Notes: generated by a model from the sequence alone, not told the origin. A stretch of 32,000 nt of DNA from Crocosphaera subtropica ATCC 51142 (GCF_000017845.1 NC_010547.1:180001-212000); one strand, 5' to 3'. Positions 1 to 13,581 are shown, counted from the stretch's first letter. Numbers and translations are program-made.

Positions 1-120
1 ACAATTTTTGTAGAAGGACGCGGTACTTTTCACGTTCGTATGCTAATGAGCAAATTAGCTTGTTCTTTAGAGGATAAGCCCTATTCTTCTTGTAACCGAG
101 AAGACGGAATTCCTTTCTAG
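1..120 (+). CDS. partial ORF, 3' end only (hypothetical)
   Basis: Frame 1 is open from base 1 to TAG at 118-120. A hairpin plus T-run follows at 130-154, as in downstream cassettes. Confidence 0.3.
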   Translation, partial: TIFVEGRGTFHVRMLMSKLACSLEDKPYSSCNREDGIPF

Positions 121-129
121 GAAATTACT

Positions 130-154
130 AGCCCTCGATAGGGCTTTTTTTTTT
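130..154 (+). terminator. rho-independent terminator
   Basis: Stem agccct/agggct with loop cgat, then a 10-nt T-run. Confidence 0.7.
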
Positions 155-179
155 GCTATTGTTGAATGAGAAAATAAAT

Positions 180-187
180 GCTAGCGC
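180..187 (+). promoter_or_regulatory. GCTAGCGC box (cassette promoter/operator candidate)
   Basis: tGCTAGCGCaagattaaacgacc; 35 nt to ATG 223. Confidence 0.55.
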
Positions 188-222
188 AAGATTAAACGAC
201 CTTAAAAGATACCAGTGAAAAT

Positions 223-408
223 ATGTGCGAAAACAGAGTCACCCTCAATATTTCTGAACGAGAGTTAGCCACTATACTGGCCTCTTTAGAATTATTCAGA
301 AAGGAACGAGCAAAGGAAGACTTTAGACCATATTCAGAGCAATTCGAGGAAATTGAGCCTCTGACAGTTGAAGAAGTGGATAAGCTTACTGACTATCTGG
401 AAAATTAG
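223..408 (+). CDS. small acidic protein with RELATILASLELF motif (paralogous to the middle of 490-1329)
   Basis: 61-aa ORF with the box at correct spacing and a terminator at 416-445. The segment ERELATILASLELFRKE...EEIEPLTVEEVDKL matches PRELATILVALRLFQR...EETEPLTASEIDEL in the next gene. Confidence 0.6.
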   Translation: MCENRVTLNISERELATILASLELFRKERAKEDFRPYSEQFEEIEPLTVEEVDKLTDYLEN

Positions 409-415
409 AGAATTG

Positions 416-445
416 GAGCTAGGTGTCATCCCAGCTCTTTTTTTT
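416..445 (+). terminator. rho-independent terminator
   Basis: Stem gagct(a)gg/ccagctc followed by an 8-nt T-run. Confidence 0.6.
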
Positions 446-448
446 CAG

Positions 449-456
449 GCTAGCGC
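449..456 (+). promoter_or_regulatory. GCTAGCGC box
   Basis: gGCTAGCGCcagttaaagcgacc; 33 nt to ATG 490. Confidence 0.55.
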
Positions 457-489
457 CAGTTAAAGCGACCTTTATTCGCTTAAAAACTA

Positions 490-1329
490 ATGAGCAATCA
501 AAATAAAGCATGGGATTTATATCTTAAGGGAAACAAGCTCGCAGAAGAACAGAAGATCGAAGAAGCGATCGCAGTCTATAAAGAATCAATTGATCTCTAT
601 CCCCACCATGAAGAAGTTTATAATAACTTAGGGGTTCTTTACCATGACTTAGGCAAACACGAAGATGCAACCGCGTTTTTTGAGCAAGGAATTGCGATCG
701 CCATGAGAAATACCAAGGCTCCCAGTCCTCAGTTTAATCCCAGAGAATTAGCCACGATATTAGTGGCACTCCGATTGTTCCAGAGAACGCCAAGTGTAAA
801 GAAGCAACTATTAGAATATTTCGAGGAAACCGAACCCTTAACTGCGTCTGAGATAGATGAGTTATGTGAACGACTCAACTGTTCATGCTCAAGCACAGAC
901 CTCGCATCCAAAACACTAAATATTAGTGAAAGGCTGACAGCGATCGGGGAAATCGAAGTTTTAATGGCTGAGAGTTACAGAATAAGGACATTGACTCGAA
1001 TTTGGGCTACTTTTCCTGAAATTACCTCAGTCGAATTTGCCGAGATTGAAGAAGGTACTGAGGTGGCACCAGGAACGATTGCTTTGACCGATATTCAGTT
1101 TATAAGCGAAGATTCTGCTACAGAGATTATCAAACGAAATAATCTTGAATTAGTCTCAGATCAATATCGTATAGAAGGGGATTCACTACAATTCTGGCAA
1201 TATCTCCTTTTATCAACATCGCCGACAGAAAAACTTATCGGTAAGCATGACCGTCCCGACGAGCTACCGAATCTTATCGATGTTATCGAACAAGTTTCCG
1301 ATCTGGGGAAACGCTTAGCAATCGACTAG
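490..1329 (+). CDS. TPR-repeat protein with RELATIL-type domain and C-terminal W-x-(Y/F)PEI family domain
   Basis: 279-aa ORF. N-terminus is TPR-like (AIAVYKESIDLYPHHEEVYNNLGVLYHDLGKHEDA). It then has PRELATILVALRLFQ, then RIWATFPEITSVEF...IQFISEDSA, and the tail DRPDELPNLIDVIEQV. Confidence 0.75.
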   Translation: MSNQNKAWDLYLKGNKLAEEQKIEEAIAVYKESIDLYPHHEEVYNNLGVLYHDLGKHEDATAFFEQGIAIAMRNTKAPSPQFNPRELATILVALRLFQRTPSVKKQLLEYFEETEPLTASEIDELCERLNCSCSSTDLASKTLNISERLTAIGEIEVLMAESYRIRTLTRIWATFPEITSVEFAEIEEGTEVAPGTIALTDIQFISEDSATEIIKRNNLELVSDQYRIEGDSLQFWQYLLLSTSPTEKLIGKHDRPDELPNLIDVIEQVSDLGKRLAID

Positions 1330-1360
1330 CGTCAGTAAACTTAGAAAGATTCATTTAACT

Positions 1361-1384
1361 AAGGGCATTATGCCCTTTTTTTTT
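1361..1384 (+). terminator. rho-independent terminator
   Basis: Stem aagggca/tgccctt followed by a 9-nt T-run. Confidence 0.75.
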
Positions 1385-1457
1385 GATGTAGGATGCACCT
1401 CCGACGAGTTACAGCGATTTTGATCAGTTATTTCGACAAATCAAAGAGGGGGAAAGG

Positions 1458-1465
1458 GCTAGCGC
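1458..1465 (+). promoter_or_regulatory. GCTAGCGC box
   Basis: gGCTAGCGCccacctgaaaggg; 35 nt to ATG 1501. Confidence 0.5.
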
Positions 1466-1500
1466 CCACCTGAAAGGGAAATATCAGAGCAAAAAATCAA

Positions 1501-1701
1501 ATGAAGCAGTTTATCATCTTCTTATTGGCCATAGCCGTAGTAGTGACATCTATGGCTCTGTTCAAAGGCTATTTCATTAAAAATTATGGTGACGAGCCAT
1601 CATTTGAGCAGATTTGCTACGTTGGTCTTTTAACTATAGGTGGACTTAGTTTACCAATGGTGGTAATGACGATTATTACAACGCTGTTATCGGCGTTCTA
1701 A
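1501..1701 (+). CDS. small membrane protein (two predicted TM helices)
   Basis: 66-aa ORF with hydrophobic stretches FIIFLLAIAVVVTSMALF and VGLLTIGGLSLPMVVMTIITTLL. Box upstream and terminator downstream. Confidence 0.6.
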   Translation: MKQFIIFLLAIAVVVTSMALFKGYFIKNYGDEPSFEQICYVGLLTIGGLSLPMVVMTIITTLLSAF

Positions 1702-1716
1702 GAGGGAAAAAGACTA

Positions 1717-1750
1717 GGAGGAGATGAGTAATAGTCATCCTCTTTTTTTT
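1717..1750 (+). terminator. rho-independent terminator
   Basis: Stem gaggag-atga/tcatcctc followed by a 9-nt T-run. Confidence 0.6.
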
Positions 1751-1822
1751 GTAAGCGATTGTCACAAAAGATCACCCAGCGTCGCTTAAAATAATATGGA
1801 ATAAAGCGAGGTCGATTCATTA

Positions 1823-2038
1823 ATGCAAACCACAGGTTATTTTCTAGTCAACGGACAAAAAATAAAGGTGTTAGCCCGTGTACCCTTGAAGCCAAGGAAG
1901 GACGGAGCTTTTTGCCGGTCATTTAAGCTAAGGCACTCAGGCCGAGATGGAGAATGCTTTGAGGATGAGTCCACTTTTTTAGAGTCAGAACCTGCCGTAT
2001 TACAAAGTCTCATGGAAGGGGAAGTTATCAGGCTATGA
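1823..2038 (+). CDS. hypothetical protein
   Basis: 71-aa ORF. No recognisable box or family. Confidence 0.4.
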   Translation: MQTTGYFLVNGQKIKVLARVPLKPRKDGAFCRSFKLRHSGRDGECFEDESTFLESEPAVLQSLMEGEVIRL

Positions 2039-2112
2039 ATAGTAACGAAGTTAAAGAAAACTTTAAAAGTATTTACGAAGAATATTTACACACAATTTGT
2101 ATTTAAGGTAAA

Positions 2113-2433
2113 ATGAAGTTTGAGTGGGATGAAAACAAAGCACAGTCCAACTTAGAGAAACATAAAATTTCCTTTGAGTTAGCAAAAGAACTTTTCAAGG
2201 AACCGACTGTATTGAGCTTCCAAGATAATCGCTTTGAATATGGGGAAATAAGAGAAGTAGCTATAGGAGAGTTATATGGAGTCTGTCTCTATGTTGTGTT
2301 TACCCTCAGAGGAAACATCATCCGAATAATTTCAGCTAGAAAAGCTAGTGTAAAAGAAAGGAAAGCCTATTATGAGTATTTCAAGAGAACAGCAAATCGA
2401 AATTCTGAAGAAAATGAGGGACGAGGAAATTGA
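2113..2433 (+). CDS. brnT: BrnT-family (DUF497) type II toxin
   Basis: FEWDENKAQSNLEKHKISFELAKELF...IIRIISARKASVKERKAY matches the BrnT signature (F-WD..K...N..KH..SF ... RIISAR.A...E...Y). Confidence 0.8.
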   Translation: MKFEWDENKAQSNLEKHKISFELAKELFKEPTVLSFQDNRFEYGEIREVAIGELYGVCLYVVFTLRGNIIRIISARKASVKERKAYYEYFKRTANRNSEENEGRGN

Positions 2434-2644
2434 TTTCTCTGATGCTCCAGAAGCAACAGATGAGCAGTTGGCTCGTCTGGAGGCATTTGTGCCACCTAAG
2501 AAAAAAACAATAACCATTAAATTGGACGAAGATATAATAGATTGGTTCAAGGATGAGCAGCCACAGGGAGGATATCAAACCTTCATCAATGCTGTTCTCA
2601 GAGATTATGTACGGCGCAAAGTCGAAGAAAGACAAATAGAGTAA
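2372..2644 (+). CDS. brnA: BrnA-family (DUF4415-like) antitoxin
   Basis: Lies immediately downstream of and overlapping brnT. Contains IDFSDAPEATDEQLARL and a C-terminal DNA-binding-like segment. The start could instead be ATG 2411. Confidence 0.7.
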   Translation: MSISREQQIEILKKMRDEEIDFSDAPEATDEQLARLEAFVPPKKKTITIKLDEDIIDWFKDEQPQGGYQTFINAVLRDYVRRKVEERQIE

Positions 2645-2698
2645 TACCAAGGTCAAAGTCGGGATCGCACAGAGTCTAGAAGGGCGTTAAAAAATATG

Positions 2699-2706
2699 CC
2701 TAGCGG
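2699..2706 (+). promoter_or_regulatory. degenerate box CCTAGCGG
   Basis: gCCTAGCGGa, the same variant as at 8952; 32 nt to ATG 2739. Confidence 0.35.
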
Positions 2707-2738
2707 ACTATTGAGTGGTTTATAGTAATAGAGAACTT

Positions 2739-3032
2739 ATGAAAATGACCCCAAAACAGCTAGAACTAATCCAACAAAGCCAAAGAGCCGTATCCAACGT
2801 GGAGACAGATCCAGAAGCCCCTCAATCAGAAGAAAAATGTTGGAATATCCCCGTTACTTGGACTTGTTGGGGAATGTACAAAGTCCCAAAATCTCAATGT
2901 TCCACCATCGATGATGCGATCGCCTTTGTCGAAAAAGAACCCTTGCCAGATCAAGGAGAGTACGTGGATGATTCGATGCGAATCGATATGGAGGGATTAT
3001 CAATCCATAACTCATCCGAAGAAGAAATCTAG
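2739..3032 (+). CDS. hypothetical protein
   Basis: ORF-track 2715-3032 trimmed to the first ATG at box-consistent spacing (MKMTPKQLELIQ...). Confidence 0.5.
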   Translation: MKMTPKQLELIQQSQRAVSNVETDPEAPQSEEKCWNIPVTWTCWGMYKVPKSQCSTIDDAIAFVEKEPLPDQGEYVDDSMRIDMEGLSIHNSSEEEI

Positions 3033-3037
3033 GAAAA

Positions 3038-3088
3038 ATCCGCAGCAGTGTCTGTAACTTATAAGCAAAAATAGCTGTTGCTGCGGAT
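3038..3088 (+). repeat. ATCCGCAGCA...TGCTGCGGAT hairpin element, copy 1
   Basis: 10-bp terminal inverted repeats around an AT-rich TTATAAG core. Lies 5 nt after the stop of 2739-3032. Confidence 0.85.
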
Positions 3089-3139
3089 ACCTCTAATTTA
3101 ATAATAACCAGGGTTTCAGACATTTGGTAAGACCACTTT

Positions 3140-3147
3140 GCTAACCC
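3140..3147 (+). promoter_or_regulatory. degenerate box GCTAACCC
   Basis: 6/8 match; 31 nt to ATG 3179. Confidence 0.25.
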
Positions 3148-3178
3148 ATATTGGTAGGAACTAAACCTATCAACAAAG

Positions 3179-3425
3179 ATGCTAATTTACTTCATCGAGT
3201 TAGAGAATAACGGTAAATACCAAGAAGTCCCACTGAACGATTTCATGATGGGGATTTTGAGAGAACGTTATAGCGGTGATCTCGACTCTGGAGTTAGTCT
3301 AAACTCCAGCCCAAAGAGTTCCGTGATAAGCCATTGAAACGTCCCGATGACCCAGAACAAGAGCTGAAGGATTTACTTCGTGATATACGCCGAGCGATCG
3401 ACAAATATAAAAGCTTGTTCTTAGA
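3179..3425 (+). pseudogene. decayed W-x-YPEI family cassette (frameshifted, no stop before terminator)
   Basis: A 52-codon ORF runs 3179-3337 (MLIYFIELENNGKYQEVPLNDF...). The family C-terminal tail KRPDDPEQELKDLLRDIRRAID then continues in another frame from 3334 and runs into the terminator without a stop. Confidence 0.35.
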
Positions 3426-3430
3426 ATATT

Positions 3431-3460
3431 CGCACTGTACTCAGCAGTGCGGGTTTTTTT
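3431..3460 (+). terminator. rho-independent terminator
   Basis: Stem cgcactg/cagtgcg followed by ggttttttt. Overlaps the 3' end of the convergent RNase H gene. Confidence 0.6.
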
Positions 3461-4229
3461 ACAAAGCACTTTTTTTTCTAGTAATATTAGCAGAAATTTC
3501 TGCATCGACCCTTGCCTTTTTCAGAGCTAAGGCAGGTTTTAACCCCCGCAAGTACCAGCGTAAAGATTTGTCGAGTAAATCTTGTTCATCTTCTATCAAA
3601 GCCTGAGAAATTGCGTCGATGACGCTATCTGGTACAGCTTCATGAAGACGAGCGCCACGCAATGAAGAGAACTGATCACGACCCGATTTTAGCTGTATCC
3701 ATTCTTTGAATTTCGCACCATCCCCCTGCTGATTAAGACGGTTTATCCGCTTTTTTAACCCTTCTCTTGCTTTACAGAGTGGGAGATTGTCAGGAATTAT
3801 GGCCTTAGATTGAGGGAGAACCGATTGTATTGCCTCGGTAGCTGCTGCGTCAGCCTTTTTGTTAATTTCCCTAGGAATCCAATCAAAATGAATATGTTCA
3901 AATTGCTTTGCCAGAGAAATAGCTTGGCGGTGTAAGGGCCTCAACCCACTGTTTCGACATCGGTAACTGCCGATAACTTGGCAAATGACTAATTCAGAAT
4001 CTCCCTTTACCTCAAGGCTAGAAATATTCATTTCTAAGGCTTTTTCTAAACCTAGAATAAGACCTCCGTATTCAGCTTGGTTGTTAGTTATATTTTCGCC
4101 TAAATATTTTGAAAAAGACTGTTCATCATTCTCTTGGATAATTACCGCACCACAACCCCCGTGACCAGGGTTTAAGGGAAAGGTTCCCCCATCAAAATAT
4201 AATCTAACACCAGCTTCATCGCTTTTCAT
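3459..4229 (-). CDS. RNase H (type 1) with about 120-aa C-terminal extension of unknown function
   Basis: LYFDGGTFPLNPGHGGCGAVI...TNNQAEYGGLILGLEKA...VKGDSELVICQ...IPREINKKADAAA matches the DEDD RNase HI layout. Confidence 0.8.
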   Translation of the reverse strand: MKSDEAGVRLYFDGGTFPLNPGHGGCGAVIIQENDEQSFSKYLGENITNNQAEYGGLILGLEKALEMNISSLEVKGDSELVICQVIGSYRCRNSGLRPLHRQAISLAKQFEHIHFDWIPREINKKADAAATEAIQSVLPQSKAIIPDNLPLCKAREGLKKRINRLNQQGDGAKFKEWIQLKSGRDQFSSLRGARLHEAVPDSVIDAISQALIEDEQDLLDKSLRWYLRGLKPALALKKARVDAEISANITRKKSAL

Positions 4230-4289
4230 AGTGAATTACAGCGGATAACTACTGGCTTCATTCTAGCAAAAAACATTGTAAGTACCTCT

Positions 4290-4297
4290 GCTAGCGC
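4290..4297 (+). promoter_or_regulatory. GCTAGCGC box
   Basis: tGCTAGCGCaggtaaaagcaacg; 34 nt to ATG 4332, with an aaggag SD in between. Confidence 0.55.
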
Positions 4298-4331
4298 AGG
4301 TAAAAGCAACGTATTTTTTAAGGAGTCACCT

Positions 4332-4943
4332 ATGTCTAGAGAGCGAAAACTTGAGAAAAACACTTTCGGAAACGGGTTGTGGACAGAATACAACTGTTAC
4401 TATTTGTTTCCCTCAACAAAGATGGAACAAGACCCTTATAAAGAGGCAGACTTGTGGTTAACCATCGTTGTAACCGAAGGTAAAGTCGAGGTCAGTGAAC
4501 ATCTACACATCCGGAGAACAGGAGCCTCCACTCGTGAGTCTTATGTTGCGGACTGCCTGACGGTATTGGATGGAAGAAGTGTGAAGGTCATGCCCTACTT
4601 TGAAATAAAAGTGGATACGGCTACTTCCGATGTCTACATCGCTTTCAACAAACAAGCTTTGACTGATGACCTTAAGGGAATCAAGAATAAGAAAAGAAAG
4701 ATATATACGGTATGTGGTAATAAGTGTTTTTGCTTCGATAATAAGCATATTTACGACCAAGACTACAACCTGTTTCGCATTAAGCGATATGGATTCTGGA
4801 TGTCAATTCCCCGAAAAGTGGCGAAGCACCTAGTGCAATTCCATGATTTCAAAGTTTTAGATTGGAAGGGAAAAGAGGATAACCTGATTTATCAGCAGTT
4901 GTTCCATGCGCCGAAACCGAAACTAATAGGAATACTAGACTAA
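4332..4943 (+). CDS. hypothetical protein
   Basis: 203-aa ORF flanked by box, SD and terminator. No family recognised. Confidence 0.6.
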   Translation: MSRERKLEKNTFGNGLWTEYNCYYLFPSTKMEQDPYKEADLWLTIVVTEGKVEVSEHLHIRRTGASTRESYVADCLTVLDGRSVKVMPYFEIKVDTATSDVYIAFNKQALTDDLKGIKNKKRKIYTVCGNKCFCFDNKHIYDQDYNLFRIKRYGFWMSIPRKVAKHLVQFHDFKVLDWKGKEDNLIYQQLFHAPKPKLIGILD

Positions 4944-4955
4944 GAGGAGAGAGAG

Positions 4956-4980
4956 AAAGGCTTTCTATGCCTTTTTTTTT
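4956..4980 (+). terminator. rho-independent terminator
   Basis: Stem aaggc/gcctt followed by a 9-nt T-run. Confidence 0.55.
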
Positions 4981-5035
4981 GATGGAAAATGAGTGCGTTT
5001 TGTGGTGCATGAGAGGGGCTAAGAGTGCAGATTAT

Positions 5036-5043
5036 GCTAGCGC
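5036..5043 (+). promoter_or_regulatory. GCTAGCGC box
   Basis: tGCTAGCGCa; 37 nt to ATG 5081. It lies inside ORF-track 4967-5767, whose first 38 codons cover the terminator and the box. Confidence 0.5.
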
Positions 5044-5080
5044 ATTTATGGCATCTGATAACCATTTATCCAAAATAAAT

Positions 5081-5914
5081 ATGGCATTCCAAAATCTTGA
5101 GTCCGTACTAGACACTCTGAAAACACAAGGCGCATCCACTATCGAAATTACCTACTTCGGAGAAGGAGACGACGGAGCGATCGAGCCACCGAGTCTAAAA
5201 ACCTGCACCGCAGGATATGATTCAGAAGCTATCGAAGCGGCCTTGGACTCTGGGCCAGGAGACACTCTCATTGCATTTGTCGAACATATACTCGGCCCCG
5301 GATGGGAAAATGGAACCGGCCTCAGTGGGACGGTCATCTTCGATTTAACTACTGATACGATAACTCACAGCCAAGAAGAAGAGGTGATTCAATGCAATTA
5401 TAACGAAGATACTTACACCCTGAACGGAGACTTACTTAGGAGCAAAACGGACAACTGGGAAGACCGTATTTTAGCTTCTTCGAGTGAGAATGAATCTATG
5501 AGTCAACACCAAAAAGAATACATCTCACAGATCGAAAGCAAACTACGTGAAACCATTACAGAACGCTTCTTGCTTGATTTCTGGGTCCAATATCCAGAAG
5601 TCGACAATATTACATTGGAAAAGACCTGGGGAAAAACCCCCGAAGGCGGATGGACTACATTTATCGAGCTCAAAGACATTGAGTTTGTATCAATTCAAGC
5701 TATGGAGGAATTAAAGAAAAAGCTTGATGGAACCAGTCAATACGAAGCCGACAGTGTATCTGGATGACAAGAATTACTATTTAAGGATGGGAGGATTCCC
5801 GATGAAGAAATTAGCGAGAATTATCTCGATAAGAAATTGAGCCGTGGTGAAAATCCAGAACAAACGCTCAGAGAAATGATGATGGAAATCGCGAAAGTTA
5901 TCGACGGGGAGTAA
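5081..5914 (+). pseudogene. W-x-YPEI family gene interrupted by an in-frame TGA at 5765-5767 (or readthrough)
   Basis: MAFQNLESV...FWVQYPEVDNITLE...IEFVSIQAMEEL...SG, then TGA. The same frame stays open to TAA at 5912-5914 and encodes QELLFKDGRIPDEE...RGENPEQTLREMMMEIAKVIDGE, homologous to the C-termini of 6002-6433 and 7279-7737. The only terminator lies after 5914. Confidence 0.6.
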
Positions 5915-5934
5915 TTTCTACGAAAAGAAGCAAC

Positions 5935-5960
5935 AGAGGCTATATGCCTCTTTTTTTTTT
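5935..5960 (+). terminator. rho-independent terminator
   Basis: Stem agaggc/gcctct followed by a 10-nt T-run abutting the next box. Confidence 0.75.
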
Positions 5961-5962
5961 CT

Positions 5963-5970
5963 GCTAGCGC
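5963..5970 (+). promoter_or_regulatory. GCTAGCGC box
   Basis: tGCTAGCGCaagaaaatgtgacc; 31 nt to ATG 6002. Confidence 0.55.
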
Positions 5971-6001
5971 AAGAAAATGTGACCACTGACGTTTAAACAC
6001 T

Positions 6002-6433
6002 ATGCTTACAGCAGAAACAACTTCCAAGAAACTCGCTTCCATTGAGAAAGTAGAAGAAATCCTAAAAAGAACTGAAACAAAGCGGTTCCTTTTGGGTATT
6101 TGGATTGAATATCCCGAAATCAAAAGTCTCACCTTCGAGGACACCTACGAATACGATGATAAGGGAAGTTATTATCGATATACCTTCATCAACCAAATCG
6201 AGTTTATCAGTCAAGAAGCCAAGTCCGCATTACACGAGAGGCTAGACCCCGATAGTATCTTTGACGAGGAACCCGAAGACTGGAAAGAGATGCTCTTCGA
6301 GGGCATTCAGCCAAGTGTTGACCCAGAAAGTATGCTAGAAACCTTTGATCGTCCCGAAGATCCTCAGAAGGAACTTGATGATCTAATCGCTGAAATCAGC
6401 CAAGTAATCGCAACCGCAGGAGGGATAGTATGA
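6002..6433 (+). CDS. W-x-YPEI family protein
   Basis: RFLLGIWIEYPEIKSLTFED...IEFISQEAKSAL...WKEMLFEGIQP...DRPEDPQKELDDLIAEISQVI. Confidence 0.7.
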   Translation: MLTAETTSKKLASIEKVEEILKRTETKRFLLGIWIEYPEIKSLTFEDTYEYDDKGSYYRYTFINQIEFISQEAKSALHERLDPDSIFDEEPEDWKEMLFEGIQPSVDPESMLETFDRPEDPQKELDDLIAEISQVIATAGGIV

Positions 6434-7170
6434 AGGGACTCAGTGTAACTGCTATTGGTGCGCGTCCCCTTGATGAATGCCTGAATATCTTTGAAACCCT
6501 CAAAGAATCGCTTGGATTAGACTTCTTAGAATTAGCCGTGGGGAGTCGCTGTGACTTGTCGAAGATTCCCAAAGAAATTCCTTTGGTGATTCACCATCGG
6601 TGTTTATTCGATGGGCTCTACAAATTGCCATTCTCCTTAGCCCAACCTGAAACCTGGGAGGAGTATCGACAGCGATTACGCGATCGCAATGTCAAGATGA
6701 TATCAATTCATCCTCCGATGCGAAAGGAAATCACCTTCGATGACCTTAAACGTAATAGAGACCAATTTGAATCACTTCTAGGTGTTCCAGTGTGCCTTGA
6801 GGTCATGCCAAATGATGCTTACTGGTTATCTGAGGACGATTTCAGAACAACTCCTGATAGAGTTATTGATATTCCCATTCTACTCGATATTTCCCATCTG
6901 AACATCTGGGCTAAAGGACGCAGCGCCTTAGTCCAAGAGTGGACGGAAAGACTATTACCCCAGGCGATCACTGTGCATTTGTCGCACAACAACGGTCGAA
7001 GAGATTCCCACGACTTAATCCCGTCAGATATCTGGTTTAATCAACATATTGAAAAGTGGGAGACCCAAGGGTTGATTCTAACGTATGAATCCTTACCAGA
7101 AAGCTTTGCAAAGTTTGAACGGGATGATAAGCAGCGAATGAAGCAAAAACTAAAACACCGCGTTAGTTAG
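6430..7170 (+). CDS. xylose isomerase-like / AP endonuclease family 2-like TIM-barrel protein
   Basis: ATGA overlap with the upstream stop. Spaced metal-ligand-like residues are LELAV, SIHPP, CLEVMP, LLDISHLNIW and VHLSHNNGRRDSHDLIP. Confidence 0.5.
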   Translation: MKGLSVTAIGARPLDECLNIFETLKESLGLDFLELAVGSRCDLSKIPKEIPLVIHHRCLFDGLYKLPFSLAQPETWEEYRQRLRDRNVKMISIHPPMRKEITFDDLKRNRDQFESLLGVPVCLEVMPNDAYWLSEDDFRTTPDRVIDIPILLDISHLNIWAKGRSALVQEWTERLLPQAITVHLSHNNGRRDSHDLIPSDIWFNQHIEKWETQGLILTYESLPESFAKFERDDKQRMKQKLKHRVS

Positions 7171-7177
7171 AATAACA

Positions 7178-7200
7178 AGGGGCTTTATGCCTCTTTTTTT
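7178..7200 (+). terminator. rho-independent terminator
   Basis: Stem aggggc/gcctct followed by a T-run. A second hairpin ccacgtc/gacgtgg follows at 7201-7229. Confidence 0.65.
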
Positions 7201-7232
7201 CCACGTCCACAGCAAAAAAAAAGACGTGGAAT

Positions 7233-7240
7233 GCTAGCGC
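7233..7240 (+). promoter_or_regulatory. GCTAGCGC box
   Basis: tGCTAGCGCa; 38 nt to ATG 7279. The ORF-track start at 7231 lies inside the box. Confidence 0.5.
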
Positions 7241-7278
7241 ATGGAGAGGGTGGACAACAACTATTAAGAATAACGACT

Positions 7279-7737
7279 ATGAATTCTGTTGATGCTATTT
7301 TTGCGATAAATGACTTACTCAATACAAACAGCTTCGATAAAAAGATTCAGCTATTTTGGGCAGTCTATCCAGAGATTAAAGCGATTATGATAGACGAAGA
7401 CGTAACTATTGAAGAAGGAGATAGCTATAAACTTGAGACCGTATTAGATATAGAATTCACCAGCGATAAAGCCAAGGAAAGGCTTAAAGATCGTATTGGG
7501 TTCAACGATATATTAGTTGATAATCCCAACATCAATGAAAACGAACTCTGGGAGATACTTTTGTTTAGAGAAGAGGGACTTATTCCAGAAACTAGCAAAA
7601 TATTTGAAGGGAATCTCCCTCAAATAGAACGACATCACCTTGGCATCACCTGGGTCAGACCTGAGACAGCAGCAGGTGAAGTCGATGATTTGTTAGAGAA
7701 AGTAAGCCAAGTCTTACAGAAATTCACTAGACAATAA
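7279..7737 (+). CDS. W-x-YPEI family protein
   Basis: MNSVDAIF...IQLFWAVYPEIKAIMIDED...LDIEFTSDKAKERL...LWEILLFREEGLIP...RPETAAGEVDDLLEKVSQVL. Confidence 0.65.
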   Translation: MNSVDAIFAINDLLNTNSFDKKIQLFWAVYPEIKAIMIDEDVTIEEGDSYKLETVLDIEFTSDKAKERLKDRIGFNDILVDNPNINENELWEILLFREEGLIPETSKIFEGNLPQIERHHLGITWVRPETAAGEVDDLLEKVSQVLQKFTRQ

Positions 7738-7747
7738 CAATACTGAT

Positions 7748-7785
7748 AGAAACCACTCCTATAGTCGGTTTCTTTTTTTCTTTTT
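7748..7785 (+). terminator. rho-independent terminator
   Basis: Stem agaaacc/ggtttct followed by a T-rich run abutting the next box. Confidence 0.65.
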
Positions 7786-7793
7786 GCTAGCGC
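7786..7793 (+). promoter_or_regulatory. GCTAGCGC box
   Basis: tGCTAGCGCattttacg; 28 nt to ATG 7822. Confidence 0.5.
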
Positions 7794-7821
7794 ATTTTAC
7801 GTTAAAAATAAGGTAAATAAA

Positions 7822-8301
7822 ATGAAAGCTTCGCATTATCAATTTCTATATTTAGCACCAGCCTATTTAGAACGAATCGGCTACACCAAAAACTTTATGC
7901 CATTTAACGTCAAGCGTCCCCAAGAAGGAAGGATTTACCTAGAATCGCTATTCGATGGGTTTTATTATATTGGATGTAAAGGAATTAATAGGCATAAAGA
8001 TGGTGCATTACTACCTCCTTATGTAAGTTTTTTGGTACTCAGAAATGATGGGTTTATTGCGAAACCCTACCACCGACCTGCTAATAATAGAACGCAGCCA
8101 CCTGGTAGCCTGTTACTGCTAAATATCCATAACTACCACCATGTCATGAAGTTGCCCCAACAAAGCAAAACGTCAACGGGGGATGCTTGGTGGATAAGCC
8201 TAGGGAAAGACTATGATACTAAGCCCAGTAGAGAGAAGATGATAGCTGATTTTGACAATGTCCTTGATAAAATGTCGTTTCTGACTGCTGACGCAGGGTA
8301 G
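7822..8301 (+). CDS. hypothetical protein
   Basis: 159-aa ORF with the box upstream. No family recognised. Confidence 0.6.
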   Translation: MKASHYQFLYLAPAYLERIGYTKNFMPFNVKRPQEGRIYLESLFDGFYYIGCKGINRHKDGALLPPYVSFLVLRNDGFIAKPYHRPANNRTQPPGSLLLLNIHNYHHVMKLPQQSKTSTGDAWWISLGKDYDTKPSREKMIADFDNVLDKMSFLTADAG

Positions 8302-8348
8302 AGCGACGTTAAAATACTTTTGAAAAACCCCTTTTCGTAATCTAGCCA

Positions 8349-8398
8349 ATCCGCAGCACCGGTTATTGTTTATAACAAAAATAGATATTGCTGCGGAT
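8349..8398 (+). repeat. ATCCGCAGCA...TGCTGCGGAT hairpin element, copy 2
   Basis: atccgcagcaCCGGTTATTGTTTATAACAAAAATAGATATtgctgcggat, followed by the conserved tail ATCTCTAAG...GAGACATTTT. Confidence 0.85.
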
Positions 8399-8474
8399 AT
8401 CTCTAAGCTTTATAACATGAAGGATAGAGACATTTTATTGATCGGCTATCTTTGAGTAAAAACCCGATACAATC

Positions 8475-8482
8475 GCTAGCGC
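8475..8482 (+). promoter_or_regulatory. GCTAGCGC box
   Basis: cGCTAGCGCt; 30 nt to ATG 8513. Confidence 0.5.
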
Positions 8483-8512
8483 TGAGTAATATGGATTTTA
8501 TTAGAAAAAGTA

Positions 8513-8878
8513 ATGATTTATACCGCTAGTTATTTCCAACCTGAAAACCACCACGGACAAATTGTCAGCATTTCTCGTAGCGAACCTAAGAAAATTCATT
8601 TCGACGGTAAGCTATGGATGTTTGCCCCTGACAGATCACTTCTAAATGACATTAAATCAGGGAAAATAGACCAAGATGGTTACATCGAGAAATATCGAGA
8701 ACAACTACGCAAAGTATGGCCCAACATAAAAGCTTGGCTTGACCAGCTTGACCCCAATGAAGATGTAACTTTGTGTTGTTGGGAAAAAGCAGGAGATTTC
8801 TGCCATCGAAACTTAGTCATCAAATTTGTTGAGAAATATCGTCCTGATTGTTTAGGGGGAACCGACCTTAAAGCGTAA
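8513..8878 (+). CDS. DUF488-like protein
   Basis: MIYTASYF...VSISRSEP...FAPDRSLLNDIKSGKIDQDGYIEKYREQL...VTLCCWEKAGDFCHRNLV resembles the DUF488 layout (C..E....CHR). Confidence 0.5.
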   Translation: MIYTASYFQPENHHGQIVSISRSEPKKIHFDGKLWMFAPDRSLLNDIKSGKIDQDGYIEKYREQLRKVWPNIKAWLDQLDPNEDVTLCCWEKAGDFCHRNLVIKFVEKYRPDCLGGTDLKA

Positions 8879-8885
8879 AGAAACA

Positions 8886-8916
8886 GCAGCAACCAGAAAA
8901 AAGTTGCTGTTTTTTT
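8886..8916 (+). terminator. rho-independent terminator
   Basis: Stem gcagcaac/gttgctgt followed by a 7-nt T-run. Confidence 0.7.
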
Positions 8917-8951
8917 CTGAGGTCTACAAACCGTAGACGTATGGAGGTTTG

Positions 8952-8959
8952 CCTAGCGG
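8952..8959 (+). promoter_or_regulatory. degenerate box CCTAGCGG
   Basis: gCCTAGCGGc; 35 nt to ATG 8995. Confidence 0.35.
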
Positions 8960-8994
8960 CTCTATCAGAGAACAATGCTTTGAGGACTACACCG

Positions 8995-9204
8995 ATGCTG
9001 ATCAAAGAATATATCGAAAAATACTGCGCTGAGCGTGGACTAAGCGAGCAAACTTCCAACGAAATTATTAAGGATTTGGCTACCGCCGTTAACGGAGAGT
9101 TAGGGGATTTAATGGATAGACCAGTAACTTCTTTGACATTGGGAGATCGAGAAGGACTCAATGCCTTAATAAAGAGACGAATTAGAGAGCATTCGGTGCT
9201 ATAA
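8995..9204 (+). CDS. hypothetical protein
   Basis: ORF-track 8941-9204 trimmed to the in-frame ATG at box-consistent spacing (MLIKEYIEKY...). Confidence 0.45.
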   Translation: MLIKEYIEKYCAERGLSEQTSNEIIKDLATAVNGELGDLMDRPVTSLTLGDREGLNALIKRRIREHSVL

Positions 9205-9266
9205 ACACCGAAAGTAAATGAAGTCTTTAAAATGACTGTAATAGTTACTGGATAAGGGTTTAAGGT

Positions 9267-9316
9267 ATCCGCAGCAACAGCTATTTTTCTTATAAAGAAT
9301 AGATGCTGCTGCGGAT
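9267..9316 (-). repeat. ATCCGCAGCA...TGCTGCGGAT hairpin element, copy 3 (inverted orientation)
   Basis: The core CTATTTTTCTTATAA is the reverse complement of the TTATAAGAAAAATAG core of the other copies. The conserved tail (ACCTTAAAC...CAGTCATTTT) lies on the left flank. Confidence 0.8.
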
Positions 9317-9325
9317 CTAATTTCC

Positions 9326-9333
9326 GCTAGCGC
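9326..9333 (+). promoter_or_regulatory. GCTAGCGC box
   Basis: cGCTAGCGCgggattaagtgacc; 34 nt to ATG 9368. Confidence 0.55.
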
Positions 9334-9367
9334 GGGATTAAGTGACCCAAACTAATCAATAAAAATA

Positions 9368-9562
9368 ATGGCAGTTATTCGTAATCGACCACCAATAAAA
9401 TATTTAGCCGTAGTGGAAGCTGAGGGACAGCAACCAAAAGCCTTAGAATTTTTTACCACGCCAAGTTCTGAGCAGAGTGTACTCAGTGACGTGCAAAGTT
9501 TGCTCAGAGAAGGGATTACGATTAAAAATCTCTCCATCGCTGAAACGGACTTAGAGTTTTAG
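9368..9562 (+). CDS. hypothetical small protein
   Basis: 64-aa ORF flanked by a box and the terminator at 9583-9607. Confidence 0.5.
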   Translation: MAVIRNRPPIKYLAVVEAEGQQPKALEFFTTPSSEQSVLSDVQSLLREGITIKNLSIAETDLEF

Positions 9563-9582
9563 TTGCATCAGAAATTGTTAGT

Positions 9583-9607
9583 AAGAAGCTTAATAGCTTC
9601 TTTTTTT
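9583..9607 (+). terminator. rho-independent terminator
   Basis: Stem aagaagct/agcttctt followed by a T-run abutting the next box. Confidence 0.75.
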
Positions 9608-9615
9608 GCTAGCGC
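9608..9615 (+). promoter_or_regulatory. GCTAGCGC box
   Basis: tGCTAGCGCaacttgc; 42 nt to ATG 9658. Confidence 0.5.
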
Positions 9616-9657
9616 AACTTGCAAAGATAAAACAGAGCTAGAGAAAACCTCACTATT

Positions 9658-10254
9658 ATGTTTAACTGGAAGACCAAACTTCATAACTTAAGGCAAGACC
9701 TTAATCTGCTTTTAGACAAACCACCTATAGACTGTCATTGTTCGAGATGTAGCAATCCTGAAAATACCTTTTTATGCGAAGGATGTGGTCGATACACTTC
9801 ATACTGCAACGGGGGCGACGGGGACGAACTTTGTAATGATTGTTGGTCTGATAGACCACAATCTAATACAGAATGCACGCAAAGAAATGAAGCCAATGAT
9901 GCGGAACCTAAAGGAATTGAACTTGAGTTTATCAACAGAAATCTTGAGATGTCATTTCAGGGAATGGCGACTGAACCTCCTAGTAAGCAATCACTAAAAC
10001 TGGTGTTTATGACAACGCTAATAAAAATGCCTGAGATCGAAAAGTTTGAATCTGTGATAGGAGAAACTCGGACAGATTTAGGGTTGCTTATCACAAAAAT
10101 CACATTCAAGGATGACCAAGCCAGATTTTATTTAGCGAACAAATTAACAGAAAACCCTGAAAAATACGATCTAAATCAATTAGAAAGTTGGCAGGAAATA
10201 ATCGAGGAACATTACCTTAAAGTAATGTCTTGTATAGAAAACAAACAAGAATGA
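9658..10254 (+). CDS. Cys-rich (zinc-finger-like) N-terminus fused to a divergent W-x-YPEI family domain
   Basis: N-terminus CHCSRCSNPENTFLCEGCGRYTSYCNGGDGDELCNDCW. Later LIKMPEIEKFES...ITFKDDQARFYLANKL...SWQEIIEE. Confidence 0.6.
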   Translation: MFNWKTKLHNLRQDLNLLLDKPPIDCHCSRCSNPENTFLCEGCGRYTSYCNGGDGDELCNDCWSDRPQSNTECTQRNEANDAEPKGIELEFINRNLEMSFQGMATEPPSKQSLKLVFMTTLIKMPEIEKFESVIGETRTDLGLLITKITFKDDQARFYLANKLTENPEKYDLNQLESWQEIIEEHYLKVMSCIENKQE

Positions 10255-10261
10255 ACAAAAA

Positions 10262-10290
10262 AAGTAAGGCGCTTTCCTTGCTTTTTTTTG
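10262..10290. terminator. bidirectional terminator between convergent genes
   Basis: The hairpin gtaagg/ccttgc is flanked by an A-run on the left and a T-run on the right. It sits between 9658-10254 (+) and hicB (-). Confidence 0.55.
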
Positions 10291-10311
10291 GTGAACCCCA
10301 TGCGGTATGAA

Positions 10312-10788
10312 TTAGAGCTTTGCCGAGTCACCAGAAGAAATGTCTAGGGAAGTTATTAACTGATAGGATTCAGAAAAAACATTTTGCAAGGCATTGCTAA
10401 TACTCTGGATTTTTGTGGAATAGTCCAAGTCAAGCATTCGTCGAACGATTTTTTCATCGACGTTTAGGCGCTGTGCTAGGTCTACATTAGTCATCCCTTC
10501 GCGCCTCATTGCGATGTAGAGAGAAAGTTTAGCCGCCATTAGCTGTGGAATTACCACGATTTCTTGTGTACTTGACTTTGGAGACGGCTCTGGGATGTCC
10601 CGTCTATCGTCGATGTATCCTCCCAAAGCAGCAATCAGACAATCATAAGCAGTGGCATTAATATCAACACTGGTGTGGGTTGAAGTGAGGGCTTCGGGAA
10701 TATCTGGAAAGGTGATTAAAAATTCACCGTCTTCTTTAGCAATAGTATAAGGAAAAATGAAGTCCACCTGTGTTCTCCTAAAGATCAT
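10312..10788 (-). CDS. hicB: HicB-family antitoxin with C-terminal HTH
   Basis: EDGEFLITFPDIPEALTSTHT...DCLIAALGGYIDDRRDIPEP, then an XRE-like HTH (MTNVDLAQRLNVDEKIVRRML). Overlaps the hicA stop. Confidence 0.8.
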   Translation of the reverse strand: MIFRRTQVDFIFPYTIAKEDGEFLITFPDIPEALTSTHTSVDINATAYDCLIAALGGYIDDRRDIPEPSPKSSTQEIVVIPQLMAAKLSLYIAMRREGMTNVDLAQRLNVDEKIVRRMLDLDYSTKIQSISNALQNVFSESYQLITSLDISSGDSAKL

Positions 10789-10981
10789 CTTTGTTAATTC
10801 CTAGTTGTTGGCACATGGCTCTGAGTAGCCCTTGCCCTAGCTCACCTTTTTTAAGCGTTGTGAACCGCCCATCATAATAAATACGTGAGTGAGATCCTTT
10901 GCCTTGGCGTGTTTCATAAAACTCGACATTATTTTTCTTTGCCAATTTCCTAAGCTTTTTTCTAAATTCTTTGTCATCCAT
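10778..10981 (-). CDS. hicA: HicA-family mRNA interferase toxin
   Basis: Start moved to the ATG preceded by aaggaggaggg. MDDKEFRKKLRKLAKKNNVEFYETRQGKGSHSRIYYDGRFTTL matches the HicA GKGSH signature. Confidence 0.8.
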   Translation of the reverse strand: MDDKEFRKKLRKLAKKNNVEFYETRQGKGSHSRIYYDGRFTTLKKGELGQGLLRAMCQQLGINKDDL

Positions 10982-11138
10982 CCCTCCTCCTTTTACTTTA
11001 ATCATCGGACATTTATGCCCGAAAATCAAGTATTTTGGGTAGGAATCTTTGGACCCAAGCACTGAACCCCAGAGTGTAACTCCACCCCGTATTTTCTTAG
11101 AGTAATCGACCTAGAGTCAAAAAAGAAAGAAATCTGCT

Positions 11139-11146
11139 GCTAGCGC
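11139..11146 (+). promoter_or_regulatory. GCTAGCGC box heading an ORF-less unit
   Basis: aatctgctGCTAGCGCagattcagttgagacc. No ORF lies before the terminator at 11183-11219. Confidence 0.5.
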
Positions 11147-11219
11147 AGATTCAGTTGAGACCAACCCATCTCCATCATGTAAAGGTAATTCTCATATTTG
11201 GGATTACCTTTTTTTTTTT
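11147..11219 (+). ncRNA. candidate small RNA (box to terminator, about 70 nt, non-coding)
   Basis: The only reading frame is ATG-TAA. Ends with hairpin aggtaat/attacct plus an 11-nt T-run. Layout parallels 17276-17346. Confidence 0.3.
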
Positions 11220-11220
11220 A

Positions 11221-11270
11221 ATCCGCAGCAACGTCTATTCTTTATAAGAAATATTGGTGGTGCTGCGGGT
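11221..11270 (+). repeat. hairpin element, copy 4 (right arm TGCTGCGGGT)
   Basis: atccgcagcaACGTCTATTCTTTATAAGAAATATTGGTGGtgctgcgggt, directly after the T-run. Confidence 0.8.
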
Positions 11271-11375
11271 AATACAAACCCCATCAGTATAGGGTTGCAA
11301 GGGGATAGACATCTACAAAACCTCGGAGGGTGGGTATGTCCCACCTTAAGGCAATGCCCTCATCTCTGTTTTACT

Positions 11376-11383
11376 GCTAGCGC
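11376..11383 (+). promoter_or_regulatory. GCTAGCGC box
   Basis: tGCTAGCGCaggacagcatgacg. The leader is unusually long, 139 nt to ATG 11523. Confidence 0.4.
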
Positions 11384-11522
11384 AGGACAGCATGACGTTC
11401 CTACCTAAAGGAGGTAAATCGTGAGACTTTCATTTTTATAAAATATATAAAGTTCTAGTAGTATAAACTATATCGAATATTTTTCGAGGTAGTTATGATG
11501 ATTTTTTGCGAGGAAGAAAACG

Positions 11523-11906
11523 ATGTTTAAAAGATTGGACTGTACACATTGCCTCAACTACAAAATTGTGAGGAGTTTTGAATATATAGAGACTTGTTCT
11601 CACGAACATATAGAGACTTGCTCTTGCAACGAATATGCTTCCTGGTATCCTTCACAATTCAAGCCTTCGAGTAATCCTTCTCTTCTTTACCTAGACTGCA
11701 TAGATTCAATAGAAGCTGCATTAAGGAAAGATTCAGAGCCGAATGTAGATGATGTTACCTGTATAGAAATGCTAAATAACTTAAAAGAAACAAGGTGTTT
11801 ACTAGATACAGATGCAATTGTCAACGAATTACACAACAAAGTTTCATTCGGATATTATTCTGATTACATGAAACATTTTGTCTCTGAATTACGCAGAAAT
11901 GCTTAG
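11523..11906 (+). CDS. hypothetical Cys/His-rich protein
   Basis: 127-aa ORF containing the internal near-duplicate ATATAGAGACTTG(T/C)TCT twice (YIETCSHEHIETCSC). Confidence 0.45.
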   Translation: MFKRLDCTHCLNYKIVRSFEYIETCSHEHIETCSCNEYASWYPSQFKPSSNPSLLYLDCIDSIEAALRKDSEPNVDDVTCIEMLNNLKETRCLLDTDAIVNELHNKVSFGYYSDYMKHFVSELRRNA

Positions 11907-11961
11907 AACAAGTTTCAATACCAGTTGATTTACCCGAAAAGAAATTTTTATCTTCGATGAG

Positions 11962-13581
11962 TTGACGGGGTGACAAGAATTGGGAAAAGCGGATCAAATC
12001 AAGGTTTCAGAATCTGAGTTGACTAAAAAATCAACCTATTTAATAAGTGGTGATGATTATTAAGCAGTTTATGATAACCCAAGTTGATATAATGAAGATG
12101 AAAATGATCACGATTATTTCTATTAGTTTAGAATTTCAAAAATTGGACATAACAAATTAATCAATCAGTCTTGATTCATCACTTCTATTAGTATATAATT
12201 GAAAGAGAAACTAAAAGATTAACTAATGGCAATTAAAGCTTTTAATCCTCGTTTATATTCATTTATTTTATGCCAGTTTAATTTCATCAATTCTTCGGTA
12301 ATAAATGAACAAAAATCCCAGGCTAAAATCCAGCTTTGACCATATAGCCCTACCCAAAAGTCACTATGTCTTCTTACTTGTCTTTTCGGATCAGTTAACC
12401 TAGAAATATACTTTTGATATCCTTGATTTTTGATTGACTTACCTTTTAAAGCTGATGTTGTATAAGCGATCGCTATTAATAAAATAAGGTTAGTTAGCCT
12501 AGTAATACTAGCTTTGCTCCCTTCGAGATTGTAACCTCCACTCTTATAATCTCTAAACATTGCTTCAATTCCTCCTCTCATTTTATAGTATTTAATAACT
12601 TCACTAGCATCGTCTAAATTGGTTATAATAAACCAAGGTTCTTCTTCGGTATGGTTCTTATATTTCCTTTTTTGATAAGCTAATACATTAAATCGACCAA
12701 ATCCTTTCTGCTTCGTGACAAAAATGTTTTTCTCAAAGACTTTTATTCCTGGGATCAGGTTTAAATCTTGAAAGCGTTTTTGATTATTCTTACTCCTTCT
12801 AATATAAACATCTTTCCGTTCTCTGAAAGCGAAATAAATAGGATTTTTAGCCGTTCGGTTTCGTTTCTTTAGCCAATAAGATAATTCTACCCCATGAAAT
12901 TCCCTATCCCCTAAAACGACTAGCTCATAGTGAGAAAATAATCTCAAGACTGGTCGAATTAAAGCTATTTGTTCTTTAACGTTGCTACTGCCTTTTTTCT
13001 CTAATAAGACCCAGTAGATAGGTAGCGATCGCTTTCTCCAAACAACACTAATCATGAACACATTTTTATCTTTCCATTGCGTTCTATCCAAAACTAAAGT
13101 TAATCGACTTCCTGGTTTAAACTCCCGTTCTACTATTAATTTTATCAGAGGAAACCAAAATAAAACAAGGCTTAAGCACGGTTCGACTAGAAATCTTTGA
13201 ATCTTTTTTCTCCGACTTTCGTATAGAATAGGTATAGGAAGATAAGCTGCTAACCTTTCTATTCTCACCTGTTTATGAACTTGTAAGAGCCATACTAATA
13301 TATGTAAAAGTAAAAACTTACTTTTTGATAGTGCGCTCTGTAAATAGTCTTGATAGAAAGGTAAAAAATCCATAGATAATGATAAAAGATTATGACGGAG
13401 AATAAGCCTTTTTATCATTTTGAGGGGTATAATTGCTGTTCGTTTCTAACAATTAGACATTTTCTCGTCTAGATAGACTATTTGTACTGTTTTACTTTGG
13501 GGCTAAATCTATTTTTTTAGGTAATCGCTGATCTCTAAATCCCTCACAGTGAGCCTTCTCAAGCTCTTGTCACCCCGTCAA
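11962..13581 (-). mobile_element. IS4-family insertion sequence, apparently intact, with 9-bp target site duplication
   Basis: Terminal inverted repeats are TTGACGGGGTGACAAGA (11962-11978) and its complement ending at 13581. Direct repeat TTCGATGAG is at 11953-11961 and 13582-13590. A single transposase ORF lies inside. Confidence 0.88.
12219..13418 (-). CDS. IS4-family DDE transposase
   Basis: 399 aa. D in LVLDRTQW, D in VVLGDREFHG, and the Y-x2-R-x3-E-x6-K signature in YKMRGGIEAMFRDYK. Confidence 0.9.
   Translation of the reverse strand: MIKRLILRHNLLSLSMDFLPFYQDYLQSALSKSKFLLLHILVWLLQVHKQVRIERLAAYLPIPILYESRRKKIQRFLVEPCLSLVLFWFPLIKLIVEREFKPGSRLTLVLDRTQWKDKNVFMISVVWRKRSLPIYWVLLEKKGSSNVKEQIALIRPVLRLFSHYELVVLGDREFHGVELSYWLKKRNRTAKNPIYFAFRERKDVYIRRSKNNQKRFQDLNLIPGIKVFEKNIFVTKQKGFGRFNVLAYQKRKYKNHTEEEPWFIITNLDDASEVIKYYKMRGGIEAMFRDYKSGGYNLEGSKASITRLTNLILLIAIAYTTSALKGKSIKNQGYQKYISRLTDPKRQVRRHSDFWVGLYGQSWILAWDFCSFITEELMKLNWHKINEYKRGLKALIAIS

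Follow-up and report, generated by a model that had tools for sequence, protein, structure and literature searches.

The left part of a 32,000-nucleotide stretch of DNA from Crocosphaera subtropica ATCC 51142 (GCF_000017845.1 NC_010547.1:180001-212000; hereafter the window) carries on its + strand a run of small genes (223-10254) in which one protein module recurs behind different N-terminal heads, and the locus raises the question of what this module does. A first-pass annotation of the window had assigned five full genes and one remnant to a paralogous family with an unrecognised domain and a conserved RP(D/E)DP tail. Because genes of a type IV secretion system (T4SS) are encoded nearby, it had speculated that the proteins are delivered to the recipient cell or act early in it. 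Here we describe the family and propose, tentatively, that its constant module is the partner of a TIM-barrel metalloenzyme-like protein encoded directly downstream of one member.

The existence of the family was examined by an all-versus-all BLASTP comparison of the 287 stop-to-stop open reading frames (ORFs) of the window. Member C matched B (5e-12), D (9e-12) and A (3e-5), and further matches joined D to B (2e-3), A to B (5e-3) and the remnant to C (3e-3); the members are listed in Table 1. A hidden Markov model (HMM) of the family, built from homologs outside the window with E left out, was then scored on the window ORFs. It assigned 184 bits to C, 108 to D, 89 to A and 90 to B, with another 31 bits for the piece of B that lies past a stop codon; the remnant tail received 21.6 bits and E 19.9, and the top unrelated ORF 8. 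The paralogous family is real, well beyond chance, and A, C and D are intact, significant members. The earlier grouping therefore needs amending for the other three, since B is interrupted by a stop codon, E is marginal and only the tail of the remnant belongs to the family; the alignment and HMM that had been called for place A to D clearly above chance and leave E at its low score. The description of variable heads on a constant module was accurate: the heads differ, being TPR repeats, a DUF6878-like domain, a Cys-rich segment or, in C and D, nothing. The RP(D/E)DP block is present near the C-terminus of A, B, C and D and in the remnant, and E is without it.

The constant domain comprises ~135 residues and had rightly been called unrecognised: it has no match in Pfam-A, NCBIfam, PHROGs, PADLOC or PDB sequences. 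C and D gave no family match at E <= 1, except for a chance-level match of D to RLIG1 (E 0.1), and no Pfam family recurs across 35 members. The domain is also rare. A word-indexed homolog search with C alone returned only close orthologs, and an exhaustive profile search was needed for the rest; among 1.84 billion cluster representatives no more than 30 proteins reached E <= 1e-3, and wherever a source is named it is a cyanobacterium. A scan of GTDB, with one genome per species, yielded only Crocosphaera chwakensis CCY0110 and Cyanothece sp. BG0011, a metagenome collection yielded two loci, and IMG/VR one weak partial match. The PLSDB plasmids contain no family member, a tblastn search of them with C was empty, and positions 1-12000 of the window have no DNA match there.

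An AlphaFold2 model of C, computed from a 35-sequence alignment, reached a mean predicted local distance difference test (pLDDT) of 93.5 and a predicted template-modelling (TM) score of 0.84. It consists of helices 4-23 and 25-36, a long hairpin of strands 40-51 and 57-68, helices 71-81 and 91-99, a short strand 114-116 and a helix 121-140, and the third strand is predicted to start at the conserved R-P-x-x-P. Comparison of this model with PDB and BFVD by Foldseek returned top TM-scores of 0.2-0.3 and nothing at E <= 1e-3, so that the Pfam, AlphaFold and Foldseek checks proposed earlier disclosed neither a Pfam family nor a structural neighbour in these two collections. In nearly all members the domain carries a net charge of -13 to -22 over ~140 residues, with an isoelectric point of ~4.2. 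A, C and neighbouring genes are under purifying selection, as judged by the ratio of nonsynonymous to synonymous substitution rates (dN/dS) relative to CCY0110, which is 0.15 for A and 0.11 for C. The module is a strongly acidic alpha/beta domain not described before, and by the model it folds autonomously.

The strongest functional clue is an overlap that the earlier account of the family had passed over. The gene for a TIM-barrel metalloenzyme-like protein begins in overlap with the stop codon of C, and a terminator-like hairpin flanks the two genes on either side, at 5935-5951, past B, and at 7177-7195. The AlphaFold model of the second protein is a TIM barrel (pLDDT 96.7), for which the top Foldseek matches are MbnB chains (TM 0.57-0.61, E ~1e-6), followed by Thermotoga Nfo, an endonuclease IV (0.52), sugar 3-epimerases (~0.5) and a DUF692 protein. 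Nine residues (H55, H94, E124, D153, H156, H186, D192, H194 and E220) are invariant in 43 TIM homologs, and their D-x-x-H and D-x-H spacing presumably resembles that of the nine Nfo ligands. Pfam AP_endonuc_2 (PF01261) scores 25.4 bits on the TIM protein, under its cutoff of 31.1, and matches 25 of the 43 homologs weakly; MbnB_TglH_ChrH (PF05114) matches three of them, at E 0.095 or worse. A profile of the TIM family found nothing among PDB sequences. Because of the MbnB/Nfo-like predicted fold, the weak Pfam matches and the nine invariant residues, we regard the protein as a probable unclassified branch of the xylose-isomerase-like, endonuclease IV and multinuclear-iron oxidase (MNIO) enzymes, with a complete set of metal-ligand-type residues, and we infer an enzymatic chemistry for it. 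The TIM family forms 92 clusters, each named source of which is a cyanobacterium; in PLSDB it has only ~26% identity matches, in Nostoc, Aulosira and Ralstonia plasmids.

The gene pair is conserved. A family member lies directly upstream of the TIM gene and overlaps it in 8 distinct lineages, namely the window, CCY0110, BG0011 and the loci L009, L010-13, L015/16, L018/19 and L022, at which the TIM homologs show 47-82% identity (53% at L009 and 47% at L010-13). The upstream member may be the domain only, a DUF6878 fusion or a C-terminally extended protein, depending on the locus, so that the pairing with the TIM gene persists when the architecture changes. One homolog, P0020, joins a family member and a TIM protein, and looks like a deletion fusion. 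Adjacency correlates with a sequence at the tip of the hairpin: the motif E-Y-[D/N]-D-x-G-x-Y is found in all six distinct TIM-adjacent members, versus one of nine non-adjacent paralogs. C retains it as YEYDDKGSY; the other four members of the window (A, B, D and E) do not have it.

That in these eight lineages a member lies upstream of the TIM gene and overlaps it suggests a new two-protein module and not a secretion signal. We propose that the ancestral, constrained job of the acidic domain may be that of a partner of the downstream, translationally coupled TIM metalloenzyme, as a regulatory, inhibitory or targeting subunit. Physical binding of the domain to the TIM protein would go through the conserved, acidic and aromatic tip of the hairpin as candidate contact site. 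The members A, B, D and E would have arisen by duplication, retaining the fold but not the tip and adding other heads (TPR, DUF6878, Cys-rich); they have probably found new use as modular accessories within the establishment region of this mobile element. We consider it a realistic possibility, somewhat short of an even chance, that the acidic domain is a subunit or regulator of the TIM enzyme. A more specific formulation is that the two proteins make up a two-component system not known before, which belongs to cyanobacterial conjugative elements and acts during establishment in a new host, either as a protein-modifying multinuclear-metal enzyme with a folded substrate or as a DNA-processing nuclease with an acidic specificity or regulatory subunit; in this full form the proposal is rather unlikely.

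At its right end the window has genes for a NikA-like protein and a MobA/VirD2 relaxase, followed by two small membrane proteins and by a VirB4-like ATPase of the DUF87/HerA type that is cut off by the window end, in keeping with the earlier placement of the family beside conjugation genes. The relaxase is separated by 16-26 kb from the family cluster on its left, and the genes of the cluster point toward the relaxase. Related loci carry genes for SSB (L015, L016, L018 and L019), DUF932 (L008 and L010-13) and AbiE (L015 and L018), as well as DUF488-N3a, RNase H, a clamp-loader-like pair, a GHKL ATPase and toxin-antitoxin genes. Establishment and anti-defence genes have been described as the content of plasmid leading regions (PMC11541004), and the gene content of the window and related loci matches those sets. 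A role in plasmid establishment or anti-defence may be supposed for the family, and from the SSB, DUF932, toxin-antitoxin and Abi genes of the related loci it is plausible that its proteins act early in the recipient, the part of the first-pass annotation's speculation that we retain.

Several observations weigh against a TIM partner acting in establishment. Four of the five window genes neither adjoin the TIM gene nor carry the tip, and the partner idea alone therefore does not explain them. At L008 two tandem members occur with no TIM gene within 12 kb. Chromosomal TIM homologs of Leptolyngbya (42-44% identical) follow two or three tandem paralogs of an unrelated ~290-residue family, and the enzyme is therefore not strictly dependent on the acidic domain. 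The correlation between tip and adjacency could come in part from shared ancestry and may reflect no more than orthology of a conserved core lineage. Finally, an insertion sequence (IS) element, toxin-antitoxin modules (BrnT/A, HicAB) and genes of no assigned function separate the cluster from the relaxase, and the designation of a leading region is a presumption from gene content.

The prominence of MbnB among the Foldseek matches raises a different relation between the two proteins, in which the domain would be the substrate of an MNIO-like enzyme of the MbnB/TglH/HvfB type (DUF692, PF05114) that alters a conserved residue after translation, perhaps one in the Y-E-Y-D-D tip. The TIM barrel is structurally closest to MbnB (TM ~0.6), has the full invariant His/Asp/Glu set, and its gene comes straight after that of one or several paralogous proteins. 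In mbnA-mbnB the precursor gene precedes the enzyme gene, and the small gene upstream of the TIM enzyme resembles this order. The enzyme follows paralog arrays in two settings, the mobile-element and the Leptolyngbya loci, and the tip motif tracks TIM adjacency. Known targets of MNIOs are Cys, Asn and Phe residues (PMC12452194), and one MNIO modifies a whole protein, HvfA (PMC11252979). In contrast to the known systems, however, the TIM homologs have no significant PF05114 match and are matched far more often by AP_endonuc_2, no MbnC/DUF2063-type gene lies beside the pair, and no Cys is conserved in the family alignment. What lies upstream is, by a confident prediction, a folded unit of 135 residues to which extra domains are often joined, and not a leader-core peptide, and endonuclease IV and sugar epimerases are nearly equal to MbnB in Foldseek. 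We regard a substrate role as unlikely. The survey of the MNIO landscape mentions neither cyanobacteria nor plasmids (PMC12452194).

The acidity that runs through the whole family would also fit a self-sufficient DNA mimic, an anti-restriction or anti-defence protein in the manner of ArdA or Ocr, with the TIM adjacency as incidental operon packing. As with ArdA and Ocr, the genes are small, lie on mobile elements, often in one orientation and here as several paralogs, and have establishment-type neighbours (SSB, DUF932, toxin-antitoxin), a concept and a gene content described in PMC11541004. What the comparison fails to supply is any similarity of the domain, in sequence or fold, to ArdA, Ocr, ArdB or anti-defence families in Pfam, PDB or BFVD, and the family is absent from PLSDB plasmids. 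An overlap with the TIM gene that persists over 47-82% identity and in three architectures is difficult to dismiss as incidental; to our knowledge, enzyme-gene coupling is not a feature of ArdA or Ocr. The probability of a free-standing mimic is, in our estimate, low.

A nuclease-inhibitor pair, in which C would plug the metal site of an endonuclease-IV-like TIM enzyme after the fashion of an antitoxin and the paralogs would be orphan inhibitors, is marginally less probable again. The order of the genes, small and acidic upstream and overlapping the enzyme, is what such a pair would show, the nine invariant His/Asp/Glu residues have a presumably Nfo-like spacing, and Nfo structures are among the top Foldseek matches. 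The TIM protein differs from Nfo in its sub-cutoff score, in TM-scores of 0.39-0.52 and in being ~40 residues shorter, and we know of no dedicated acidic partner for Nfo. Endonuclease-IV-type enzymes are repair enzymes and not known toxins, no PADLOC or toxin-antitoxin family matches the pair, the TPR and DUF6878 heads of the paralogs go unexplained, and the non-adjacent paralogs are without the presumed plug, the EYDD tip.

Least supported of the readings ranked, and very improbable, is the first-pass proposal that the proteins are translocated by the T4SS with the RP(D/E)DP...EL..L C-terminus as signal: although the window contains relaxase and T4SS-like genes and the block is conserved near the C-terminus of A, B, C and D, the signal is unsupported because the model predicts an integral, well-packed helix for the tail (region 111-130 of the C model, with RPEDP and part of helix 121-140, has pLDDT 98), the final 30 residues are net acidic, the motif is internal in at least seven homologs (P0017, P0018, P0022, P0036, P0037, P0023 and P0030, which have C-terminal extensions of 90-200 residues beyond it), E has no tail, and the other loci examined, contrary to the expected co-occurrence, have no relaxase or T4SS gene within +/-10 kb. 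VirB/D4-type signals are basic and disordered.

The novelty lies in the sequence and the predicted fold, in that an undescribed domain is coupled to a TIM family that appears unclassified. The one named Pfam family in the vicinity, DUF6878, scores above cutoff on the N-terminal heads of B, P0007, P0010, P0024 and P0025 and covers the head only; the constant C-terminal domain lies outside it and outside every other Pfam family. A literature search returned no paper mentioning DUF6878, and those on DUF488 shed no light on the locus. The conjugation and establishment biology of cyanobacterial mobile elements is poorly known, and should the pair prove to be an enzyme with its partner or its substrate, it would bring new chemistry or regulation to these elements; if it is merely another accessory family, its value is confined to annotation. 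In either case two small genes in one operon with a candidate contact motif are a compact experimental handle, a testable two-gene module and not an explained mechanism.

Table 1. Features of the window and of two Leptolyngbya loci; positions refer to the window unless a locus is named.
Feature	Position	Strand	Remarks
61-aa ORF	223..408	+	stand-alone RELATIL...EPLT..E(I/V)D.L module, paralog of the middle module of A
Member A	490..1329	+	TPR head 1-75, RELATIL module ~82-131, family domain ~145-279
BrnT/BrnA	2113-2644		toxin-antitoxin-like pair
Remnant	3313..3417	+	tail block KRPDDPEQELKDLLRDIRRAI of a former member, nothing else surviving
RNase H / RVT_3 protein	3459-4229	-	~120-residue C-terminal extension; convergent with remnant
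Member B	5081..5914	+	DUF6878-like head and family domain; in-frame TGA at 5765-5767
Member C	6002..6433	+	domain alone, 143 aa, net charge -19
TIM-barrel metalloenzyme-like protein	6430..7170	+	246 residues; overlaps stop codon of C
Member D	7279..7737	+	domain alone, insertion between helix 4 and tail, variant tail RPETAAGEVDDLL
Member E	9658..10254	+	Cys-rich head (~25-65) and core matching PEI..., I-x-F, helix, W-Q-E-I
HicA/HicB-like	10312-11062		toxin-antitoxin-like pair
IS4-type DDE transposase (DDE_Tnp_1)	12219-13418	-	between cluster and transfer genes
BrnT/CopG-like	14543-15074		toxin-antitoxin-like pair
1198-residue ORF	20298-23894	-	between cluster and relaxase; no Pfam or PADLOC match
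NikA-like ribbon-helix-helix protein	26959-27255		right end of window
MobA/VirD2 relaxase	27228-28292		2e-33
Palindromic element, copies	3038-3096, 8349-8406, 9267-9314, 11221-11268, 13659-13706, 17135-17182, 17349-17396, 24231-24278		
Leptolyngbya TIM loci	L014 7615-10014, L017 5381-8014		upstream ~290-residue paralogs with conserved C-terminal LGFVHEYVIDRNCYLRLSN

The individual members differ in their state of preservation (Table 1). The head of A matches Pfam TPR_1 (1.4e-11), its family domain has the tail, and a terminator-like site follows at 1361-1377. The 61-aa ORF at the start of the cluster, which the first-pass annotation did not list, is 49% identical to residues 87-131 of A (BLASTP 2.6e-6) and is conserved in CCY0110 with a dN/dS of 0.20; tblastn with it gave zero matches in PLSDB plasmids. 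The module that these two share, RELATIL..L.LF...EPLT..E(I/V)D.L, at 223-408 and 733-885 of the window, is also N-terminal in the homologs P0016 and P0038 and matches Pfam WHD (PF22977) weakly (E 0.003). The surviving part of the remnant matches several members by tblastn (E 1e-7 to 1e-5) and is followed by a terminator hairpin at 3428-3454; positions 3179-3312, which had been counted as part of it, have no significant similarity to the family.

B is read in a frame that spans 4967-5914, and its head scores 27.8 bits for DUF6878 against a cutoff of 24.3. Its in-frame TGA is at the exact site of the conserved Trp of the W-Q-E-L-L-F block. The orthologue in CCY0110 is uninterrupted and has TGG, for Trp, at this position (...SVSGWQELLF...), whereas the remaining B-carrying contigs, L003 and L004, have the identical TGA. 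The dN/dS of B relative to CCY0110 is 0.13, upstream and downstream of the stop alike. Because of the TGG in CCY0110 and the value of 0.13 past the stop, we reject recoding and read the TGA as a nonsense mutation that recently changed TGG to TGA. Translation ending there would leave a product without helix 4, strand 3 or the C-terminal helix of the model. The base after the TGA is C, and because UGA-C is a leaky stop context, some low-level read-through by tRNA-Trp is conceivable. DUF6878-like heads joined to the family domain also occur at loci L015, L018 and L022. The terminators past B and past the TIM gene (5926-5977 and 7169-7220) are 71% identical over 52 nt, which suggests duplicated gene-plus-terminator cassettes.

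D has no counterpart at the CCY0110 locus. E had zero BLASTP matches among window ORFs, and its Cys-rich stretch has no Pfam match. Its HMM E-value among the 287 ORFs is 8e-6, and hhalign aligns it to the family with a probability of 37% (E 3.6e-4) over 69 colinear columns that include the PEI, hairpin, I-x-F, helix and W-Q-E-I elements. On the basis of the hhalign result and the HMM score, E is a probable, unproven divergent member. A further ORF, at 9683-10264 of the IMG/VR contig L020 (64% GC), carries MTFETQYEYDDEGGYFRSLS and matches the hairpin part of the profile only (22.7 bits); it is possibly a distant relative or a convergent motif.

At the Leptolyngbya loci, the TIM operon of L014 adjoins radical-SAM and ATP-grasp genes. 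Homology between the acidic family and the upstream proteins there is unproven, with an hhalign probability of 1%. The C-terminal extensions of P0017 and P0037 and the L014 and L017 proteins, all of which precede TIM homologs, have in common a short motif, G-(D/E)-x-(I/V/L)-Y-A...Y-x-D-(D/E)-(W/Y)-(Y/F)-Y-(I/V), at pairwise E 0.003-0.02, which may be due to chance.

Among the neighbouring genes of the window, the two BrnT copies are paralogous (2.9e-9), and the RNase H is also present at the related locus L015. An Rfam scan of the window found no RNA families. Eight intergenic palindromic elements (Table 1) have the form ATCCGCAGCA-N27-29-TGCTGCGGAT, in which the spacer is AT-rich with a central TATAAG. 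They are present in the CCY0110 and BG0011 loci and absent from distant loci. As single-stranded DNA the elements fold at -11 to -17 kcal/mol (z -3.5 to -6.5), and they could be operators, terminator-like elements or single-strand promoters.

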